A stretch of DNA of 64,000 nt, taken from positions 993 to 64,992 of the forward strand of contig JBDTRM010000169.1 of the NCBI GenBank assembly GCA_039931675.1, in the 5' to 3' direction. Under the pieces are notes generated by a model, which saw only the letters and a program-made list of their open reading frames with translations, was not told the DNA's origin and did no database searches. This DNA comes from Bacteroidia bacterium (GTDB taxonomy: Bacteria; Bacteroidota; Bacteroidia; AKYH767-A; OLB10). The stretch's first letter is position 1. Each line of letters opens with the position of its first letter. Of the stretch, positions 1,131 to 56,671 are shown in pieces. The position numbers and the translations under genes are program-made.

Positions 1131-3845
1131 ATGAAAAAATTAATCGCAGCAGTTACGGCATTGAGCATGTTAGTATTTGCACAACAAACAAAAGCTCAAA
1201 ACGCATTTCCGGCAAACGGAAGCACAGGCATCGGAACTTCCACTCCGAATTCATCTTCGATACTCGAAGTAAAAAGCACAACAAAAGGCATGCTCACACC
1301 ACGCATGACTAAAGCACAGCGCGATGCAATTGCTGCTCCCGCTGAAGGATTGCTGATTTATCAAACGAATTCATCTCCCGGTTTTTATTATTACAACGGA
1401 ACAGTTTGGAAAGCAGTTTCAACAAACAATGTTCGCGGATTGAATGCTAATTTATTTATCGGGCAGGATGCAGGAAAAAGTAACACCACAGGTATATCAA
1501 ACATTGCACTCGGCAAATCAGCATTGAAAAACAATTCATCATTAAGCGGTTCAATTGCCATTGGCGATTCATCGTTAATGACAAGCACTTCGGGCACAGA
1601 TAATACTGCTGTGGGTCATGCAACTTTAGCAAACAATACCACCGGTGGCGACAATGCAGCTTTCGGATATGCTGCATTGTACAGCAATACTGAAGGTGCG
1701 TATAACAGCGCATTGGGTTATTATGCGCTTTACTCGAACACAACGGGTGTTTATAATACTGCTACCGGTATGGGTTCATTGTTGAGTAATTCAACAGGTT
1801 CAAAAAATACTGCTACAGGTGCACTTGTTTTAAATCAGAATACGCAGGGAACAGATAATACAGCATCAGGATATTATGCAATGTATTCTAACACAGTTGG
1901 TGTAGGAAATGTTGGAACAGGTTCTTATGCGATGAATGGAAATGTGACTGGAAGTGAAAATACTGCAACTGGTCATTTTGCCATGTTAAACAACAATGGA
2001 AATTTTAATACTGCGACAGGTTCAAAATCTCTTTACAATAATATTTATGGAAATGAAAATACTGCCACAGGATATTTTTCTCTTTTCAGCAATACAATGG
2101 GCATTGACAATACGGCTACGGGTAGTTACTCCTTGTATTCAAATGTTGATGGCAAGAATAATACTGCTGACGGCAAGGAAGCAATGTACAGCAACACATC
2201 AGGCATTGAAAATGTTGCAGTAGGTTACAAGGCAATGAAGAACAATCAAACAGGAAGTGAAAATACGGCTACCGGTGCCAACTCGCTTTTCAATAATACA
2301 ACCGGTGCAAATAATTCAACTTTCGGAGCACTGTCAATGGCTGTCAATTCAACAGGTAGTAATAACAGTGCTGTTGGTTTTGCGGCTTTATATTATAATA
2401 ATGCAGATAATAACACGGCAGTAGGAAGCCAGGCATTGTTTTCAAATCAGCAGGGCTCTAATAATACCGCAATAGGAAGTGAAGCTCTGAAATCAAATAT
2501 TGTTGGTGGGGACAATGTAGCCGTTGGCCATTTAGCATTGAACAAAAATATTTCAGGTACCAATAACATTGGTTTAGGAAGCAGTGCCTTGTATTCAAAC
2601 ACAGCCGGTTCATCAAATATTGGTATTGGTGCTTTAGCCCTCACCTCAAATACTACAGGAAATAATAATATCGGAATTGGTCAATATACTCTCATAAGCA
2701 ATACAATTGGGTTTGATAATACTGCGATTGGATATCAATCAATGGATAACAACACGACTGGGAATTACAATACAGCAACAGGCACTTACGCACTAAGTCA
2801 CAATACTACCGGATACTGGAACTGTGCGTTTGGAAAACTTGCGCTTGAACAGAACACAACAGGATCCGGTAATGTGGGGATAGGTTATTTTGCATTACAA
2901 GCTAATACCTCCGGTGGTTATAATGTAGCAATAGGATATAGCAGCGGGAGTGTAAATGATAATAGTAACAACTGTACTTTTTTAGGCAATGATGCTAACC
3001 AGGCTAATACCAATGATATTTACAATTCAACTGCATTGGGTAGAGGCAGCCGCATCCTTGCAAGTAACCAGGTTCGTATCGGCCATACCAGTGTTAATTC
3101 AATAGGTGGTTTCCAGGATTGGACCAACTTTAGTGATGGTCGTTATAAAAAGAATATTAAAGAAGATGTGAAAGGCATGGAGTTTATACGCAAGCTTCGT
3201 CCGGTGGTTTATAATTTAGATGTAACAAAGCTCAATGAAAAATTAAATTTAACGGATAGCGATAAGGTTAGCATTAAAGAAAAAGAAAGTCAATTGCAAA
3301 CCGGTTTCATTGCACAGGAAGTGGAAGCAGCAGCTCGTTCATTAGGATATGATTTCAGCGGAGTTGACAAACCTAAAAATGCAGATGATTTTTATGGATT
3401 GCGTTATGCGGAGTTTGTTGTGCCCGTAGTAAAAGGAATGCAGGAGATGGATAAGGTGAATGAAGAGTTGAAAATGAAAAATGAAAAATTAGAAAGTGAG
3501 GTTAGCGAATTGAAAAATGAAATTGCAGAAATCAAACAGCATTTGGGAATTGCAACTGATGAGATGAAATCATCATCAAATCACCAAATTACCAAATCAC
3601 CAAATCAACTTCAAATAATTCCGAATCCTGCAAAGGATGTCGCAACCATTCGTTTTGCAAATGAAGAAAACAAAACAATAAAAGTTATTGTGATTGATGA
3701 AACAGGAAAAGAATTAAAATCAGTTTCAACTAACGGTAACGAAACGCAAATAAACACAAGCATATTTGCGGCAGGAAATTATTCAGTGAAGTTGGTTGCA
3801 GATGGAAAAATTGTTTCAGCAGGTAAGATGGTAGTTATTAAATAA
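1131..3845 (+). CDS. Tail-fibre-like T9SS surface protein: signal peptide, ~15-residue N-T-A-x-G repeat stalk, peptidase S74 intramolecular-chaperone domain, coiled coil, T9SS C-terminal sorting domain
   Basis: 904 aa. Signal peptide [22 protein letters not shown]. Dozens of xNTAxGxxALxxNTxG repeats. S74-type block [11 protein letters not shown]...[11 protein letters not shown]...[20 protein letters not shown]-terminal [14 protein letters not shown]...VKLVADGK is typical of T9SS CTDs. Confidence 0.9.
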
Positions 3846-4327: not shown

Positions 4328-7117
4328 ATGAAAAAATTAATCACAACAGTTGCGGCATTGAGCATGTTAGCCTTCGCACAACAAACAAAAGCGCAAAACA
4401 CATTTCCGGCAAACGGAAGCACAGGCATCGGAACATCAACTCCGAATTCATCTTCGATACTCGAAGTAAAAAGTACAACAAAAGGCATGCTAACACCACG
4501 CATGACAAAGGCACAGCGAGATGCAATTGCATTACCTGCTACAGGTTTATTAATTTTCCAAACAGATGCCACACCGGGATTTTATTATTACACCGGCACT
4601 TTATGGAAAGCAGTTTCAACAAACAACGTGCGCGGACTGAATGAAAATTTATTCATCGGTTTGGACGCTGGTAAAAGTAACACCACGGGTATATCAAACA
4701 TTGCGCTCGGAAAAGAAGCATTAAAAAACAACAACACTCAAAGCGGTTCAATTGCTATAGGTGATTCATCATTAATGACAAGTACTTCGGGCACAGATAA
4801 TACTGCTGTAGGTCATGCAACTTTATCAAAGAATACTACAGGTGGCGATAATATTGCATTCGGATATTCAGCATTATTTAACAACACAACAGGAAGTCAT
4901 AACAGCGCGCTGGGTTATAATACACTTTATCATAACACAACCGGCAATGAAAATACATCAACAGGAATGGGTTCTATGTTAAGCAATTCATCGGGAAGTT
5001 TTAATACTGCAAACGGTGCATTTGTTCTTAATCATAATATTACCGGTGAAGGAAACACTGCATCAGGTTACAGTTCGCTGTATTCAAATACAAGCGGCAA
5101 TTTAAATGTGGCTTATGGCAGCAATTCATTATATAATAATACCGTAGGGGAACGAAATGTGGCAGTTGGTTCCAGTTCGCTATTGAGCAACATTAGCGGC
5201 AATGAAAATATCGCCATAGGAAACGAAGCATTAAATATGAATTCTACAGGTGACGGAAATGTGGCAGTAGGCACAGAAAGCCTTAACAGCAACATGACCG
5301 GAAAGTATAATACTGCAGTAGGAACTTATACACTAAACAGGAATGAAACCGGAAATTATAATACTGCTTTAGGTACATCATCTTTGCTTTATAATCAATC
5401 GGGAAATGAAAATGTTGCAACCGGGTATCTCGCTATGCAGTTCAATATTAATGGCAATGATAATTCATCTTACGGATACCGGGCGTTAACCAATAATGTT
5501 TCGGGAAGTAATAATGTTGCAATGGGAGCTAATTCAATGAATGCAAATACAACCTCCAGCAACAATACGGCTATAGGTGCTTATACCATGGTTGCAAATA
5601 CAACAGGTACCGGTAACAGTGCGTTTGGATTTGGTGCATTGTATTTTAATAATGCAAATAATAATACAGCGATAGGAAACCAGGCATTATTTGCAAACCA
5701 GCAGGGTACTAATAATACTGCAGTTGGAGTGGAAGCACTCAAGTCAAATACTTCAGGATGGAATAATATTGCAATTGGTTACACTGCATTAAACAAAAAT
5801 GTTGCGGGTACATATAATATCGGTATAGGTAATGGTGCCTTATATTCTAATACCGGTGGTGCATCAAATATTGCAATCGGGGAATTAACGTTAACCGCAA
5901 ATACAACAGGAAATTATAACATCGGAATCGGTGGATACTCTCTTATCAATAATACAACAGGAATTCAAAATATTGCATTAGGATATAATTCACTTGGCAG
6001 TAACGTAACAGGAAATAATAATACAGCCATCGGTACTTATTCGCAGTATCATAATACAACGGGGGTAAACAATACTTCAAGCGGATATAGTTCACTTAAT
6101 AATAACACTACGGGATTTTATAATACTGTAGCAGGTTATAATGCTATGTACACGAATACAACCGGAAGTCAGAATGTTGCGTTCGGATACGATGCAGGAA
6201 GCTACAATGACAATAGCACCAAGTGTACTTTTGTAGGATATGGCTCAGACCAAAACTCATACCTGGATTTAACCAATTCAATGGCAATTGGAAATGCAAG
6301 CCGCATTTCAGCATCAAACCAGGTGCGTATCGGTAATACAGCTATAACTTCAATCGGTGGATTCCAGGATTGGACAAACCTTAGTGATGGTCGTTATAAA
6401 AAGAATATCAAAGAAGAAGTAAAAGGCATGGAGTTTATCCGCAAGCTGCGCCCCGTGGTTTATAATTTAGATGTAACGAAGCTCAATGAAAAATTAAATG
6501 TAAGGGATAGTGATAAGGTTAGCATCAAAGAAAAAGAAAGTGCATTACAAACCGGTTTCATTGCACAGGAAGTGGAAGCAGCAGCGCGTTCAGTAGATTA
6601 TGATTTCAGCGGAGTTGACAAACCGAAAAATACAGATGATTTTTACGGATTGCGTTATGCAGAATTTGTAGTCCCTGTTATAAAAGGTATGCAGGAAATG
6701 GATAAAGAAAATACAGAATTGAAAATTAAAAATGCTGAATTAGAAAGCAGTGTTAAAGAATTAAAAAATGAAAATGCTGATTTGAAAAATGAAATTTCAT
6801 TAATCAAAAAACATTTGGGAATTTCTAATGCCGAAGAAAAATCATCATCAAATTCCAAAACAACTGAAGAATCAAAACAACTTCAAATAATTCCGAATCC
6901 AGCAAAAGATATTGCAACCATTCGATTTGCCAATGAGGAAAACAAAACAATTAAAGTTATAGTGATGGATGCAACAGGAAAAGAAGTTAGTTCAGTTTCA
7001 ACTAACAGTAACGAAATACAAATCAATACAAGTGCATTTGCGTCAGGAAATTATTCAGTGAAGTTAGTTGCTGATGGAAAAATTATTTCAACATGTAAGA
7101 TGGTCGTGGTGAAATAG
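4328..7117 (+). CDS. Tail-fibre-like T9SS surface protein, tandem paralogue of 1131..3845
   Basis: 929 aa. The N-terminal ~110 aa and C-terminal ~290 aa (S74 chaperone block, coiled coil, T9SS CTD) are near-identical to the upstream copy. The central NTAxG repeat region is diverged. Confidence 0.9.
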
Positions 7118-29997: not shown

Positions 29998-32475
29998 ATG
30001 AAAACTCTATTTACAACAATTCTACTTGCGTTAGCAAGTTATGCCTTCGCTCAAACTGGGAAGGAAATTTACCTTAAATGGGATAATAACGAATTAAAGA
30101 TTGAACGCGGAGATACATCAAGTATTGAACTTCCCTTCGCTTTAAGATTCAAAGAAGCAAATTTTAAGAACAAGGAACTTAAATGGAAAAATGGCAATAC
30201 TGTAATCCCCGGAACTACTAAAAAATTCGGGACAGATATTAAATTAACCCTTGAAGATAATGGGTATTACAAAATTATTATGGAAATTAATGAAGGAAAA
30301 GTTGTTTCCAGCATCCTTGGTGAAACTAATCTTCCAAACAGTTCCATTACTCTTGAAATATCAGGAAAGTCAATCACATTTAATTATAAGGGGGGTAAAA
30401 AAGAAGAGCGTGATACAGGTGATAAGAATAAAGAAAATGAAGTAAAATATACCGCTGGATATATTTACTATGATGCAATGGCATTGGTTTCAAATAAACT
30501 TTCGCCAAAAGATAAACTCGAAATTTTAGAAAGCTATGGTTACAAAGGATCTGAAAACAATCCCTATTTAAAAGGCATATTTGATGAAGAAAATGTAAAG
30601 GCTGGTGCACATGTATCGTTGAGTCCGGGTGCCTTGTTAACCAATATCGGCAACACCGATGTAACCAATTTCGCAGCAGGTTTAGCAAGGTTTCTTGCTG
30701 AAAGAACAAAGGAAGAATTGAACGAAGCATTTTTCAAAAAGATGAAAGAGCAATTGAATGCTTATCCCGAATTAAAAACTGCTTTCCCAACAACCGCCTC
30801 TTTCTTAGATATTATTGAAACCTACTCTTACGCATCGGTTATTCAGGTTTTGAAAGAAGCATTTGAAACGGATATTCAGAATTTGCCTGAGAATTTATAT
30901 AGCATAAAAAATTTGACTTCCGCTGCGTGTAATGAAAACCTCATTTGTGGCAAAAATATTAAAGGAGAAGACAAAAAGGATTGTGATAAATATAAAGACT
31001 GTACATTAAGACTTACTAATTTGGAAAATTTTTTCAAAACAATGGAGGGGCATTGGGTGGCTTTAGGCATGTTCTCACTTAAAGAAGGAATTCAATCAAC
31101 TAATCCTGCCGAGTTATTAAAATCTATTGCTTCATCAACAGAATTTGATAATCTTAAAACGGCATCTGCAAAGTTGAAGCTTTATAATGATTATAACATT
31201 ACTTCTTCCATTGAATTGAGTAATCTTATTTCGCAAAGTTTAGTTAGTAATGAAGTTAATCAGGTTTGGATTTCTACAAATCAAATCAATTCTTTATTCA
31301 ACACCAAAGACGCATTTAAAATTTACTTAGGACTTCTCTTGGCAAAAGAACTTAAAGGGGATACTAAAGTTGAATTTTATGACTCATCTCCAAAACTTGT
31401 TTCATTCGGAAAAATTTTATCGGATAGATATCAAACTTACACAGAGTTTGAAGGTTTAATTAAAAATATCTTCTCAGCATATAATGCTACAAACAATGCT
31501 GTAAAGAAAATGCTTGCTGCATCTGAAAAATCAGTTGAAGCAGACCCACAAGCACTTTATGACTATTATAGAACCTTTACATCATCCTTAAAACCAATTG
31601 CGCATAGTCCATTATTGAAAACAATAACTGGTAAAGACATTGGTGCAGGGTACGACAAAGTAGAACAATTTTTAAATCCTGCCGTTGATATTGCGTATCA
31701 CATTTCTACAAAAAAATATTCTGCTGCAATTTATGATGCATCAATTCTTTTGAGTGCTTTAAACGAGCTTAAAGTAACAACGACAGATGAAAAAGGAAAA
31801 GTAGTAGAAGAAAAATATGATGGCTTTAAGATAGTCACAAAATCTTTTCTGAAATATGGAACCCTGATTTCAACAGTTGCAAATGCTCAAACATCTGAAG
31901 AAGTGAAAAAGGCAATTGAAGCATCCGTATTGCCGGTTGGAAGTTCTTCAATCAAAAGAAACTCTAATTTCAGTATTTCCGTCAATGCTTACGTAGGTGG
32001 GTTTTATGGTAGAGCATATACCCATGAGATGGAATACAAATACGATTCTCTCATGAATCCCATTGATACAAATCGAATTAAAAAAAATTATCAAACTTTT
32101 GGATTGTATGCTCCCATCGGAGTTTCATTCAATAAAGGCTCTAAATGTGGCTGGGGAGTTAGTGTAACAGCCCAACTATTGGATTTGGGTGCACTTGTAA
32201 ACTTTTATTTAACTGAAGGGGATCAAACTGCCCTTCCTGATGATTTCAAAATTAGATTATCAAATATCTTTGCTCCGGGTGTGCAGTTAGGCATTAATAT
32301 TCCGAAGACCCCTCTTACATTAACGGGTGGATTCCAATATGTTCCGGCATTATACCAGACAGACCAGATATCTTCTTCATCAGAAATTATTGCATCCAAT
32401 GCAGTACGATGGCACATTGGATTGGTGGTTGATATTCCTTTGTATAATGTAAAAGTTTGGGATTTTAAGAAATAA
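29998..32475 (+). CDS. Large secreted hypothetical protein (helical core, beta-rich possibly membrane-embedded C-terminus)
   Basis: 825 aa. Signal peptide MKTLFTTILLALASYAFAQ. 2-nt gap from the protease gene. No family recognised. Confidence 0.8.
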   Translation: MKTLFTTILLALASYAFAQTGKEIYLKWDNNELKIERGDTSSIELPFALRFKEANFKNKELKWKNGNTVIPGTTKKFGTDIKLTLEDNGYYKIIMEINEGKVVSSILGETNLPNSSITLEISGKSITFNYKGGKKEERDTGDKNKENEVKYTAGYIYYDAMALVSNKLSPKDKLEILESYGYKGSENNPYLKGIFDEENVKAGAHVSLSPGALLTNIGNTDVTNFAAGLARFLAERTKEELNEAFFKKMKEQLNAYPELKTAFPTTASFLDIIETYSYASVIQVLKEAFETDIQNLPENLYSIKNLTSAACNENLICGKNIKGEDKKDCDKYKDCTLRLTNLENFFKTMEGHWVALGMFSLKEGIQSTNPAELLKSIASSTEFDNLKTASAKLKLYNDYNITSSIELSNLISQSLVSNEVNQVWISTNQINSLFNTKDAFKIYLGLLLAKELKGDTKVEFYDSSPKLVSFGKILSDRYQTYTEFEGLIKNIFSAYNATNNAVKKMLAASEKSVEADPQALYDYYRTFTSSLKPIAHSPLLKTITGKDIGAGYDKVEQFLNPAVDIAYHISTKKYSAAIYDASILLSALNELKVTTTDEKGKVVEEKYDGFKIVTKSFLKYGTLISTVANAQTSEEVKKAIEASVLPVGSSSIKRNSNFSISVNAYVGGFYGRAYTHEMEYKYDSLMNPIDTNRIKKNYQTFGLYAPIGVSFNKGSKCGWGVSVTAQLLDLGALVNFYLTEGDQTALPDDFKIRLSNIFAPGVQLGINIPKTPLTLTGGFQYVPALYQTDQISSSSEIIASNAVRWHIGLVVDIPLYNVKVWDFKK

Positions 32476-32699: not shown

Positions 32700-33308
32700 A
32701 TGATTTTACTACAGGATACCTTATCATCTTTTGCCAATCTACCCGACATTCTTAAGTTCGGATTAGTTGGATTAAGTGCAATTGTACTAATCCTCGCATA
32801 CAATTTACTTTCTAAAGAACAGTCGCGAACTGGCGCTGCTCGCGAAAACATTCTGAAAACAATTAAAACATACATGTGGATTGCCTTGGCTTTTTTAATT
32901 GTTTCTGGAATTTGGTCAGTTATTGATAAGTTAATTTCAAAACCGCCTGCAACTGATCTTGCTAAGCAGGAGAGCCCCGTCATTAAAAACTGCAATAAAA
33001 ACTTTGTATTGAACTTTTCTCTCGATCCTGATTTGACTGAATTAATCACAGATAGCGACTCCCTCGAATTGCAATACAGGGTTAGACGTACTGAAACTAA
33101 ATTGAAAACAGTTCCTGTTGAAAGAGCCAAAGGACAGGGGTTCACAGCCTTTATTGATAGTCTTGACAATGATGATATTTACGAGGTTAAACTTATTAAT
33201 AGAACAAAAAAGATATTTTGGGAAAATACTGATGCGGTTTCGGTCAACTATACCTTTACTAAACTCATTCATTCTCCGGAGGATAAGTTAAAAAATTCAA
33301 TTCAATGA
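32700..33308 (+). CDS. Two-TM membrane protein with beta-rich C-terminal domain
   Basis: 202 aa. TMs FGLVGLSAIVLILAYNLL and YMWIALAFLIVSGIWSVI. Its stop overlaps the next start (ATGA at 33305-33308). Confidence 0.7.
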   Translation: MILLQDTLSSFANLPDILKFGLVGLSAIVLILAYNLLSKEQSRTGAARENILKTIKTYMWIALAFLIVSGIWSVIDKLISKPPATDLAKQESPVIKNCNKNFVLNFSLDPDLTELITDSDSLELQYRVRRTETKLKTVPVERAKGQGFTAFIDSLDNDDIYEVKLINRTKKIFWENTDAVSVNYTFTKLIHSPEDKLKNSIQ

Positions 33309-34261
33309 AAAAAAATATTTTACTATTAATATTCTTCACTTTCATAGTCTTTGCAGCAAATTCTCAAATGCGTTTTGCTGAAAAATCTCAGGATGTTTTA
33401 TTTAATGTTCAAACTACCAGCTATTCCAATGGCGTGACTAGATGGGATGTCACTGTTGATAGCAATGACAATCAGTATGATAGCATAGTAGCTATAGAGT
33501 ATAATCTCGATGGACTATTATTTAAAAATCCTGTAAGGAAAAGCGTTAACCCTAAGAATAATTTTCTGCTTACAACTTTTCACACAGTCGAAAGTAATAT
33601 TGAAGCCGTTGTCCATTTTAAAAATGGCGATGTCAGTAAAACAAAAGTACTTCTGAGCATTAACTCACAATCAACATTGCAGATTAATAATACGGCTAAA
33701 CAAATCAAATCTGGTCTTTGGGAATGGGAAGCATTTCTAACAGGCAATGCCCAAGAAATTAATAATGTGGATTACATCATTTATCAGCTACATCCTACAT
33801 TTAAAGAGCCTTATCAGAAGATTGATAAACGTGGCGATTTAAATAAAGCTTTTGCGCTAAGTGCAAAGGGCTGGGGTATTTTTATACTCAAGGCAACTGT
33901 TTACTTTAAGGATGGAAAAACAATATCACTTCGGCACGTTCTTAAATTTAATACCATAAAAGTTGATGTTTTTTACCTTGAAAGTACTCAATCCACATCA
34001 CATACATCAGCGGAAAAAATTGCACAGATTATTAGTAACAATAGCGATTTTAAAGCCTCCCCTAGGTTACTTACCGATATTATTAACGCTGGTGAAGGTT
34101 ATCGCCTTTCTGAAAATCAGATAAGGTATAACATTCTCGAAAATGATTATGTTACAACCATAATCAAAATGCTAAGTAAGGAAGGAGTAAATTCCACTTT
34201 TAAAAAGAATTTAATTTCTTACGATACACCTGAGTATATTTCAATATTTATTGTCAGGTAG
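33305..34261 (+). CDS. Exported protein with two tandem prokaryotic-YEATS-like domains plus an unknown C-terminal domain
   Basis: 318 aa. Signal peptide MKKNILLLIFFTFIVFAANSQ. The second repeat, WEWEAFLTG...VDYIIYQLHPTFKEPYQ...SAKGWGIFILKATVYFKDGKTISLRHVLKF, follows the YEATS pattern (W.W..., V.F.LH.SF..P, G(W/Y).GF, v.F...). The first repeat is weaker (RWDVTVDS...VAIEYNLDGLLFKNP...). Confidence 0.7.
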   Translation: MKKNILLLIFFTFIVFAANSQMRFAEKSQDVLFNVQTTSYSNGVTRWDVTVDSNDNQYDSIVAIEYNLDGLLFKNPVRKSVNPKNNFLLTTFHTVESNIEAVVHFKNGDVSKTKVLLSINSQSTLQINNTAKQIKSGLWEWEAFLTGNAQEINNVDYIIYQLHPTFKEPYQKIDKRGDLNKAFALSAKGWGIFILKATVYFKDGKTISLRHVLKFNTIKVDVFYLESTQSTSHTSAEKIAQIISNNSDFKASPRLLTDIINAGEGYRLSENQIRYNILENDYVTTIIKMLSKEGVNSTFKKNLISYDTPEYISIFIVR

Positions 34262-34397: not shown

Positions 34398-34733
34398 ATG
34401 AATGACAATACAACCCTTGAAGCAGTATCAAAACAAAAGAAACCTGCCAAACCCAAAAAACAATCCTCAATAGAAGAAACCCTCTGGGACAGCGCCAACA
34501 AACTCCGTGGCTCTGTTGAATCATCCTAATACAAGCACGTAGTGCTGGGTTTGATATTCCTCAAGTTTGCGAGTGATAAATTTGAAGAACGCAAAAAAGA
34601 ATTGATTGCCGAAGGCAAAGAAAAGTATATGGACATGGTAGAATTCTACACCATGCGCAACGTATTTTATTTGGCCGACATTTCGCGGTGGAGTTACCTC
34701 ATTGATAATGCCAAGCAGGCCGACCTCGCTTAA
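34398..34733 (+). pseudogene. hsdM: Type I R-M methyltransferase (hsdM) N-terminal remnant, with in-frame stop and 3' truncation
   Basis: The translation ...[44 protein letters not shown]... is the canonical HsdM N-terminal domain. TAA at 34527-34529 replaces the usual Glu of SEYKHV. The frame ends at 34733 after about 110 codons, far short of a full HsdM. Confidence 0.8.
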
Positions 34734-34821: not shown

Positions 34822-34846
34822 GAGAGAGAGAGAGAGAGAGAGAGAG
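34822..34846. repeat. (GA)12 dinucleotide microsatellite
   Basis: GAGAGAGAGAGAGAGAGAGAGAGAG read directly. Confidence 0.95.
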
Positions 34847-55405: not shown

Positions 55406-56671
55406 ATGAAAAAATTAAACATTCAAACAGGTTTCATCACCTGCATGTTAATTACTGCCTCAATGATTCAGGTAGCGAGCGCACAAAGTTGGAACCTAAC
55501 AGGTAATGCAGGTACAACCGGAAGTAATTTTATCGGAACTACGGATAACGTTTCATTAAAATTCAAAACGAAAAATATAAACCGCATGACAATTTCTTCT
55601 GTAGGAAGTGTTGGAATTGGAACGACCACTCCGGGAGCTAAACTAGATGTAACAGGAAATTCGTACTTAACAGGACACTTTACTAATACAGCTACGGGGG
55701 TAGATAATGTCGGAGTAGTTGGCGGCTGTAATAATACCCCGGGTTATGGATGGGGAGTTTGGGGAAGTGGCGGTTCAACAGGAGTTCGTGGGGAATCAAG
55801 ATTAGCCGGACTTGGTAACCGGGTTGGAGTAAATGGAGTAGCGTTAGATGGTTCAGGATACAATAGAGGGGTGAGCGGCTTTGCTTCCGGTGGTTCGGTT
55901 GCTTATGGCGTATTCGGTTATGCACAGAGTGCAACGACATCAACTTATGCCGGTTATTTTGAAGGAAATGTTTATGCAGTCGCCTATTATCAATCCTCCG
56001 ACCGCAAATTAAAAAATGACATTCAACCACTAAGCGGAGCATTGTCTATAATTCAAAAACTCAAACCCTCGGTTTATACCTTCAAAACGAATGAATATCA
56101 GCAAATGCAATTGCCTGCGGGGCTGCAATATGGCTTAATTGCTGATGAAGTGCAGCAAGTTATCCCGGGTGCAGTTAAAAAAGCTGTGCATCCTGCAATG
56201 TATGAAAATGATGATGAGCATAACGGAAAAAAACTAAGCGAAGAAGTAGAGTTCAACGCAGTTAATTATATCGAAATGATTCCTATACTTATAAGTGGCA
56301 TAAAAGAACAACAGGCGATGATTGAAAAACTTACCGCCAAGGTTGCAGTATTAGAAGGCAGCGATATGAGTAACGGTTCAGCAAAAGTTGCAGTTAATGC
56401 GGCCGCTAACACACCTCTTCTTGGTCAGAATATTCCTAATCCATTTGAAAACAATACCATAATCCCTTTCCGTATTCCCCAAAATTGTAACTCTGCTTCA
56501 ATCATTATTTCAGAAGCAGGAACAGGAAAAATCGTAAAAACAATTCCTGTTAGCTGCAATGAAACCCAAATTGCCATTGACGCAGGAACTCTTTCGATTG
56601 GAAGTTATTCGTATTCTTTGTTTATAAATGGAGAATTGGTAGATTCAAAGCAAATGATTTTAGTAAAATAA
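55406..56671 (+). CDS. Tail-fibre-like T9SS protein (short form): Gly-rich stalk + S74 chaperone domain + T9SS CTD
   Basis: 421 aa. SSDRKLKNDIQPLSGALSIIQKLKPSVYTFK...YGLIADEVQQVIPGAVKK...VNYIEMIPILISGIKEQQ. C-terminal NIPNPFENNTIIPFRIP...YSYSLFINGE. Confidence 0.85.
   Translation: MKKLNIQTGFITCMLITASMIQVASAQSWNLTGNAGTTGSNFIGTTDNVSLKFKTKNINRMTISSVGSVGIGTTTPGAKLDVTGNSYLTGHFTNTATGVDNVGVVGGCNNTPGYGWGVWGSGGSTGVRGESRLAGLGNRVGVNGVALDGSGYNRGVSGFASGGSVAYGVFGYAQSATTSTYAGYFEGNVYAVAYYQSSDRKLKNDIQPLSGALSIIQKLKPSVYTFKTNEYQQMQLPAGLQYGLIADEVQQVIPGAVKKAVHPAMYENDDEHNGKKLSEEVEFNAVNYIEMIPILISGIKEQQAMIEKLTAKVAVLEGSDMSNGSAKVAVNAAANTPLLGQNIPNPFENNTIIPFRIPQNCNSASIIISEAGTGKIVKTIPVSCNETQIAIDAGTLSIGSYSYSLFINGELVDSKQMILVK

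Follow-up and report, generated by a model that had tools for sequence, protein, structure and literature searches.

Tandem pYEATS domains with one conserved acyl-lysine pocket in a predicted exported protein encoded next to a two-helix membrane protein in Bacteroidota

The DNA analysed here is a 64,000-nucleotide stretch of the genome of a Bacteroidia bacterium (GenBank assembly GCA_039931675.1, contig JBDTRM010000169.1, positions 993 to 64,992 of the forward strand), called the window below. It carries a pair of overlapping genes, of which the second encodes a protein with two YEATS-like domains (pYEATS gene) and the first a protein with two predicted membrane helices (partner gene). The pYEATS gene is an open reading frame (ORF) of 318 amino acids (aa) that runs from ATG to stop at exactly 33305-34261. 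Its product is identical to a GenBank protein already labelled "pYEATS domain-containing protein". The stop codon of the partner gene and the ATG of the pYEATS gene share four bases (ATGA), and the two genes are probably translationally coupled. The module comprises the following features:

32700..33308, forward strand: partner gene, 202 aa (GenBank MEO8149051.1, annotated as hypothetical)
32754..32924, forward strand: residues 19-75 of the partner, predicted to form a two-helix transmembrane hairpin
33305..34261, forward strand: pYEATS gene (GenBank MEO8149052.1), encoding, in this order, a predicted signal peptide, a degenerate pYEATS domain, a pocket-intact pYEATS domain and a putative LytR_C-like domain
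33305..33364, forward strand: predicted Sec/SPI signal peptide, residues 1-20, with cleavage between ANS and Q21
33401..33655, forward strand: pYEATS copy 1, residues ~33-117, a diverged paralogue from which the aromatic pocket is missing
33680..33952, forward strand: pYEATS copy 2, residues 126-216, whose acyl-lysine pocket resembles that of eukaryotes
33791..33802, forward strand: pocket motif H163-P-T165-F166, aligning with H59-P-T61-F62 of Taf14
33869..33883, forward strand: pocket loop G189-W190-G191-I-F193, aligning with G80-W81-G82-G-F84 of Taf14 (the "WG motif")
33956..34258, forward strand: C-terminal alpha/beta domain, residues 218-318, of order beta-alpha-beta-beta-alpha-beta-beta and with a predicted LytR_C-like fold

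The first-pass annotation of the window, made from the sequence without database searches, had read this ORF as two tandem YEATS-like domains behind a signal peptide, the first copy being the weaker one. The peptide it quoted for the second copy is found at residues 139-215, and the homology that it suspected is borne out by Pfam (hmmscan). Copy 2 matches both the prokaryotic family PF20305 (pYEATS; E 4.5e-23, 81.4 bits, residues 139-213, cut-off 26.9) and the eukaryotic family PF03366 (YEATS; E 3.9e-13, 49.6 bits, residues 140-216, cut-off 22), and the PF20305 threshold is also passed by all four homologues. Copy 1 is indeed weaker: residues 1-132 taken alone score 27.8 bits against pYEATS over residues 46-110 (E 2.4e-6), just above the cut-off of 26.9. 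Moreover, hhalign aligned the two copies over 74 columns with a probability of 94% (E 1.3e-7). In the six-frame translation of the window, the hidden Markov model (HMM) of each copy recovered the other one (i-E 2.6e-4 and 8.8e-4), and an HMM scan of the same translation found no further copy of the module's domains. Judged by these profile comparisons, the tandem arrangement is real and lies far beyond chance. The resemblance to YEATS domains is real, but it had not gone unrecognised, as both the domain family, which we take to derive from the conflict-system surveys of the Aravind group, and the label of the protein are already known. What appears to be undescribed is the exported tandem architecture, the fusion to a LytR_C-like domain, and the module of two genes, one of which belongs to an unclassified hairpin family.

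The comparison with known structures leads to the same family. Thirty-six distinct Protein Data Bank (PDB) sequences matched the profile of the copy 2 family (five members) at E <= 0.01, all of them eukaryotic YEATS domains, the best being Sas5 (E 3.6e-8). A search with the single sequence matched the YEATS domains of Sas5, YEATS2, TAF14b, AF9, Taf14, and Yaf9; copy 1 yielded no match of its own in the PDB sequence search. An AlphaFold2 model built from a five-sequence alignment had a mean predicted local distance difference test score (pLDDT) of 70.6, with both beta-sandwich domains at 80-93; copy 1 was predicted as all-beta with pLDDT 85-93. In Foldseek, the single-domain matches of this model were the YEATS domains of YAF9A, ENL, AF9 (4tmp), and Yaf9 (5wyi) at 20-28% identity. 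In particular, YAF9A (8jg4) matched with 28% identity and a root-mean-square deviation (rmsd) of 2.6 A over 104 columns, and ENL (9ehi) superposed at 2.5 A over about 103 columns. The whole model also matched antibodies, FnIII proteins, adhesins, and phage tail proteins; these were rejected as generic tandem beta-sandwich matches.

To compare the pockets, we aligned copy 2 pairwise with the YEATS domain of Taf14, whose sequence was confirmed against PDB 5d7e. In Taf14, W81 and F62 sandwich the acyl-lysine, which is hydrogen-bonded to the hydroxyl of T61 and the backbone of W81 and, through a water molecule, to G82; among YEATS domains, only AF9 and ENL do not conserve the WG motif (PMC6212594). 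The pocket residues H56, S58, F59, Y78, and F81 of AF9 and T61, F62, W81, and G82 of Taf14 correspond to H163, T165, F166, W190, G191, and F193 of copy 2. A seven-sequence pYEATS alignment covering Bacteroidota (the window family and Dokdonia), Desulfobacterota (Ca. Electronema), and Cyanobacteriota (Stanieria) has eleven invariant positions, N129, W139, W141, Y160, H163, F166, G189, W190, G191, F193, and A197. Within the window family, G189, W190, G191, and F193 are identical in all five members. Hence the aromatic cage, whose conservation the first-pass annotation had singled out for checking, is conserved in copy 2 in both alignments. Copy 1 has YNLDG..F in place of LHPTF, and its GWG loop is gone; its pocket is lost, although its own motif is invariant across the family. 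The annotation had also expected a different ligand from that of the eukaryotic domains, such as an envelope or phage-derived molecule. A different compartment is indeed predicted, but the conservation of the aromatic pocket argues that the ligand is chemically similar, that is, an acyl-amide, which copy 2 may well bind.

The N-terminus of the pYEATS protein, MKK followed by NILLLIFFTFIVF and AANS with Q next in line, has the n, h, and c regions of a Sec/SPI signal peptide. The Kyte-Doolittle maximum of the leader is 2.65 over 15 residues, and the predicted cleavage site, assessed manually, has small residues at -3/-1 and Q at +1. The latter agrees with the Q-rule of Bacteroidetes, a Q after the signal-peptide cleavage site (PMC5837995, PMC10653852). 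The same hydrophobic leader followed by SQ is found in three of the four homologues, and the exported ORFs nearby in the window have AFA and ANA before Q. Further observations were counted for export. The C-terminal domain of the protein elsewhere follows an N-in membrane anchor (families P0006-P0010) or a hairpin (P0022), the positive-inside rule puts the loop of the partner in the cytoplasm, and a CarboxypepD_reg domain, typically a feature of extracytoplasmic proteins, is present in one of the 71 members of the hairpin family. These features support the leader proposed in the first-pass annotation, and the protein is predicted to be exported by the Sec pathway. Some other pYEATS proteins look extracytoplasmic too, which was likewise counted for export. 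The Ca. Electronema protein consists of a leader, an unknown domain, and the pYEATS domain, and in the Stanieria plasmid protein, likewise named pYEATS domain-containing protein, an N-in membrane anchor precedes the domain. In contrast to the window protein, the 102-aa pYEATS protein of Dokdonia is leaderless. At the Ca. Electronema locus (5371-6952), the next gene encodes a paralogue that has the same N-terminal domain, no pYEATS domain, and a His/Arg/Asp-rich tail.

Hydropathy peaks place two hydrophobic helices in the partner, at residues 19-37 and 59-75; its C-terminal part of roughly 100 aa is beta-rich. The loop between the helices (residues 38-58) contains five K/R versus two D/E, and the N-terminal tail contains no K/R. 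By the positive-inside rule, the loop would therefore be cytoplasmic, and the N-terminus and the C-terminal domain periplasmic, giving a predicted N-out/C-out topology. The hairpin including its loop is the most conserved part of the protein, the loop motif KEQSR..AR.N.L being invariant in six orthologues. When 1.84 billion representative proteins were searched exhaustively, the partner was recovered at full or nearly full length in five clusters, and the hairpin alone, joined to unrelated C-termini, in about 70 further clusters (P0016-P0086). The signature of the hairpin family is LKYG.xGLSAI...[K/R loop]...IK.FMW. No Pfam family covers the hairpin, and the partner has no match in Pfam, NCBIfam, PADLOC, or PDB sequences. 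The C-termini of the hairpin family include coiled coils, a recurrent Y-R-x-L-K..F..GAD..W-L..IP domain, and the single CarboxypepD_reg domain. In one related family, P0022, the hairpin is fused directly to a domain of the same type as the C-terminal domain of the pYEATS protein. By the Rosetta-stone argument, this fusion links the partner gene to the pYEATS gene.

The first-pass annotation had ended the protein with an unknown C-terminal domain of ~100 aa. A separate domain of this size does exist, but it need no longer be called unknown, as its predicted fold is LytR_C-like. The domain is common to two other Bacteroidota families. In P0006-P0010, the LytR_C-like domain is preceded by an N-in membrane anchor and a coiled coil. 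The P0022 family (hairpin and LytR_C-like domain) comprises 35 clusters, and those members that bear a species name all belong to Flectobacillus, Runella, or Emticicia. The conserved positions of the domain are F..Y (VFY), QIRY, E, and Y-x-S-x-F. In the window protein itself this domain was modelled poorly by AlphaFold; the P0022 copy was modelled at pLDDT about 90 and was used for the Foldseek comparison with the PDB. The top match was 2m5y, the C-terminal domain of Rv0431/VirR (E 1.5e-4, probability 1.00, template modelling (TM) score 0.53), followed by 6q10, an orthologue of Rv2700 (E 1.7e-2, probability 0.99, TM 0.39); all remaining matches had a probability of at most 0.57. A search of PDB sequences with the profile of the domain found nothing. 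We consider it quite probable that the domain is LytR_C-like by fold, though not a member of PF13399 at the sequence level. Pfam gave nothing significant for the domain; a weak match to the parvulin family "Rotamase" (E about 1e-3 in two to three members) was dropped in favour of this fold. VirR and Rv2700/Cei are the two mycobacterial "LytR_C solo-domain" proteins acting in cell-wall remodelling, and LytR_C mediates both the self-interaction of VirR and its interactions with Lcp (PMC11832169). The genes of P0006-P0010 (loci L003 and L004) and of P0022 (loci L007-L010) lie in housekeeping neighbourhoods and are annotated as hypothetical only.

The exported tandem architecture is rare, with only five clusters, at 46-49% mutual identity, among 5.8 billion cluster representatives. 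Pattern scans found two loci in genomes and one in metagenomes; the patterns are family-specific, and therefore yield few relatives. No homologue of the module was found in phage records, and among 72,556 plasmid records a single one, from Stanieria, had a pYEATS match. The partner/pYEATS pair is present at three loci, the window, L001, and L012, and both in L001 (52% identity) and in L012 the partner orthologue directly precedes the pYEATS gene. A fourth locus, L013, starts at its pYEATS gene and offers no upstream sequence in which a partner could be seen. The flanks are readable at two of the pair loci (the window and L001), and the flanking genes differ between them. We noted these features around the module and its relatives:

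29998-32475, window, forward strand: 825-aa exported protein directly upstream of the module, with weak matches to Big_8 (E 1.4e-4) and to a PorU-N-like domain (E 9.6e-4)
34398-34733, window, forward strand: HsdM remnant (HsdM_N, E 1.9e-10) with an in-frame TAA at 34527-34529; it ends after about 110 codons
38131-47624, window, forward strand: defence-type gene block, starting with a 128-aa ORF that resembles the PADLOC candidate PD-T4-10_A
2054-3007, locus L001, reverse strand: WYL-HTH regulator (PADLOC WYL model, E 2.2e-56), divergent from the partner/pYEATS pair
419-1487, locus L006 (Dokdonia metagenome-assembled genome): CAP12/Pycsar-type TIR effector gene (PF10137, E 8.6e-32) overlapping the 102-aa pYEATS gene

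On the upstream side of the module, the window encodes exported or surface proteins. The 825-aa protein is not conserved beside the module at other loci. Downstream, only the N-terminal domain of HsdM, a component of type I restriction-modification, survives. A (GA)12 dinucleotide microsatellite lies at 34822-34846, in the non-coding DNA that separates this remnant from the gene after it. Two exported hypothetical proteins are encoded ahead of the defence-type block. In the block, the 128-aa ORF is followed by genes for a DrmD-like SNF2 helicase (E 3e-194), a type III methyltransferase (E 8.5e-195), and a type III restriction enzyme (E 2.8e-299), and the last gene encodes a HipA_2-like kinase that matches PDC-M66A weakly. 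WYL-type regulators such as the one in L001 often control defence cassettes. TIR domains or other conflict-system effectors are the typical context of the pYEATS family, although membership of the Pfam family does not depend on such neighbours. The Dokdonia TIR and pYEATS genes form a candidate two-gene cytoplasmic defence pair; in the window, no TIR domain was found in the ORFs scanned, which are a subset of all ORFs, and no TIR or other effector domain in the ORFs adjoining the pYEATS gene. A scan for sigma-70 promoters and terminators performed no better than on shuffled sequence; the sigma-70 consensus is poorly suited to Bacteroidota promoters. Matches to Phage_lysozyme (E 0.16) and LIC11177 (E 0.13) were discarded as noise.

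Elsewhere in the window, three forward-strand genes (1131-3845, 4328-7117, and 55406-56671) encode Peptidase_S74 (endosialidase intramolecular chaperone) proteins, two of which also have a C-terminal sorting domain for type IX secretion. They have the look of chromosomally encoded, tailspike-like surface proteins.

In the reading that we favour, and to which we would give a probability of about 0.55, the module reads an acyl-amide ligand in the periplasm while tethered to the membrane. The partner would be an inner-membrane protein serving as the anchor, with its hairpin in the membrane and its small beta-rich domain towards the periplasm, and the exported, soluble pYEATS protein would be the reader. 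In the latter, the degenerate copy 1 may act as a scaffold or spacer, and copy 2 would bind an N-acylated amine of an envelope component or an incoming molecule, such as the side chain of an acyl-lysine or an acyl-amide of similar chemistry. The ligand would be held by pi-stacking between F166 and W190 and by hydrogen bonds with T165 and the backbone of W190. The LytR_C-like domain might keep the reader at the envelope by self-association or through the membrane partner, as LytR_C does in mycobacterial VirR, and the hairpin protein would couple the complex to the inner membrane, presumably by direct contact between the two proteins. As the cassette is rare and its neighbours differ at the two readable loci, an accessory role in surveillance or conflict is favoured over housekeeping, though with low confidence, and the case for a role in defence is circumstantial. 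The boldest version, in which a YEATS acyl-amide pocket works outside the cytoplasm on an acylated lysine or similar N-acyl group of the envelope or of a phage or competitor molecule coming in, and the module signals to, or acts through, a previously unclassified two-helix membrane module, we regard as rather doubtful.

Several observations weigh against the favoured reading. In the close family member P0004, N and G replace H163 and T165, and therefore the pocket is not under absolute constraint; the position of AF9 F28 is not conserved in copy 2, and the pocket geometry of copy 2 is derived from alignment. The signal-peptide and membrane-topology calls are heuristic. The LytR_C-like assignment consists of two Foldseek matches with modest TM-scores and no sequence support: none of ten domain sequences matched PF13399 (LytR_C) even at E <= 10. 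Neither of the two proteins contains an enzymatic or other recognisable effector domain, and neither matched PADLOC-DB 2.0 at E <= 0.01. No defence context was seen at L013, and the related hairpin and LytR_C-like families have housekeeping neighbourhoods. Finally, a literature search found no open-access paper on pYEATS or prokaryotic YEATS domains, and no experimental datum on any pYEATS protein.

As a rival explanation, the module could be an anti-phage or conflict system with an abortive-infection logic, the periplasmic pYEATS protein sensing a phage- or damage-derived envelope molecule and the hairpin protein acting as an effector that oligomerises and breaches the inner membrane. This would fit the position of pYEATS beside a TIR effector in Dokdonia, the divergent WYL regulator in L001, and, in the window, the adjoining HsdM remnant with the DrmD-like helicase, type III restriction-modification, and HipA-like kinase within about 4 kb, as well as the rarity of the cassette and its differing neighbours at both loci with readable flanks. 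The combination of the hairpin with many C-terminal domains, as is often the case in sensor-effector families, points the same way. Still, defence-type neighbours were seen at only two of the four loci examined and were never the same genes; the PADLOC result, the lack of phage or viral relatives in the records searched, and the single plasmid match also speak against this explanation, and the family that fuses the hairpin to the LytR_C-like domain is confined to one bacterial family, among housekeeping genes. We consider it possible, and improbable on balance. The housekeeping context of P0022 and of P0006-P0010, which combine an anchor with the same C-terminal domain, would rather suit an accessory of envelope homeostasis, a LytR_C-like solo-domain variant in which the pYEATS domains are Ig-like spacers or binders of N-acetyl groups on peptidoglycan or other glycans and which aids the organisation of the cell wall or outer membrane. 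The LytR_C-like domain itself, given that mycobacterial solo-domain proteins remodel the cell wall (PMC11832169), and the exported or surface proteins encoded next to the module agree with this. A core envelope function would hardly be limited to five clusters, though, and an acyl-lysine pocket invariant across phyla argues for the binding of a specific ligand rather than for a spacer, so that we find this explanation unlikely.

The last alternative is that the YEATS resemblance is a coincidence on a generic Ig-like sandwich, as the first-pass annotation had itself allowed, or that the protein is cytoplasmic and its start was mis-called. The best whole-model Foldseek E-values do belong to generic tandem Ig/FnIII proteins. 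However, these align at 7-12% identity with an rmsd of 13-21 A, compared with 20-28% for the YEATS domains and about 2.5 A for the two best of them, and the sequence profiles match YEATS domains only. As for the start codon, it overlaps the upstream stop codon, and both start and leader are conserved in homologues. With matches this specific, a coincidental Ig-like resemblance is effectively excluded.

Much research is devoted to YEATS domains as readers of chromatin and as drug targets, and their bacterial relatives have been catalogued in Pfam. The locus offers a compact and testable case: a protein of 318 aa, predicted to be periplasmic, whose pocket is identical in type to that of Taf14. 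The periplasm has no histone-like substrate, and knowing the ligand would reveal what was recognised by the fold before chromatin existed. If the boldest version of the favoured reading is true, this would be the first extracytoplasmic "reader" of acylation and would hint at the role of YEATS domains before their recruitment to eukaryotic chromatin. A periplasmic YEATS domain with an intact pocket would come as a mild to moderate surprise to a specialist in chromatin readers. If the protein is only a rare accessory of the envelope, the result is a modest refinement of the annotation. In addition, two unclassified envelope modules of Bacteroidota merit family definitions, the two-helix hairpin (about 70 clusters) and the LytR_C-like domain.

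Among known systems, the closest is the Pfam family pYEATS (PF20305), to which copy 2 belongs and with which it has the W-x-W, Y..LH.[ST]F, and GWG.F residues in common. Unlike the family at large, the window protein has the domain duplicated, with one copy degenerate, and its domains follow a predicted signal peptide and are fused to a putative LytR_C-like domain. The Dokdonia TIR/pYEATS pair differs in the second gene, since the partner in the window is a predicted two-helix membrane protein and not a cytoplasmic TIR effector. With the eukaryotic YEATS readers (Taf14, AF9/ENL, YEATS2, GAS41, Yaf9, and Sas5), the window protein has in common the Ig-like fold and the match to PF03366, and the pocket residues of copy 2, H-P-T-F and G-W-G-x-F, are the same in type as those of Taf14; by contrast, it is bacterial, predicted to be exported, built of tandem copies with other partner domains, and placed outside any chromatin context. 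The plan of mycobacterial VirR and Rv2700 (Cei), an anchor, a linker, and one domain, matches that of the Bacteroidota families P0006-P0010 and P0022, whereas in the window the host is a diderm member of Bacteroidota and the domain is joined to pYEATS instead of a membrane anchor.

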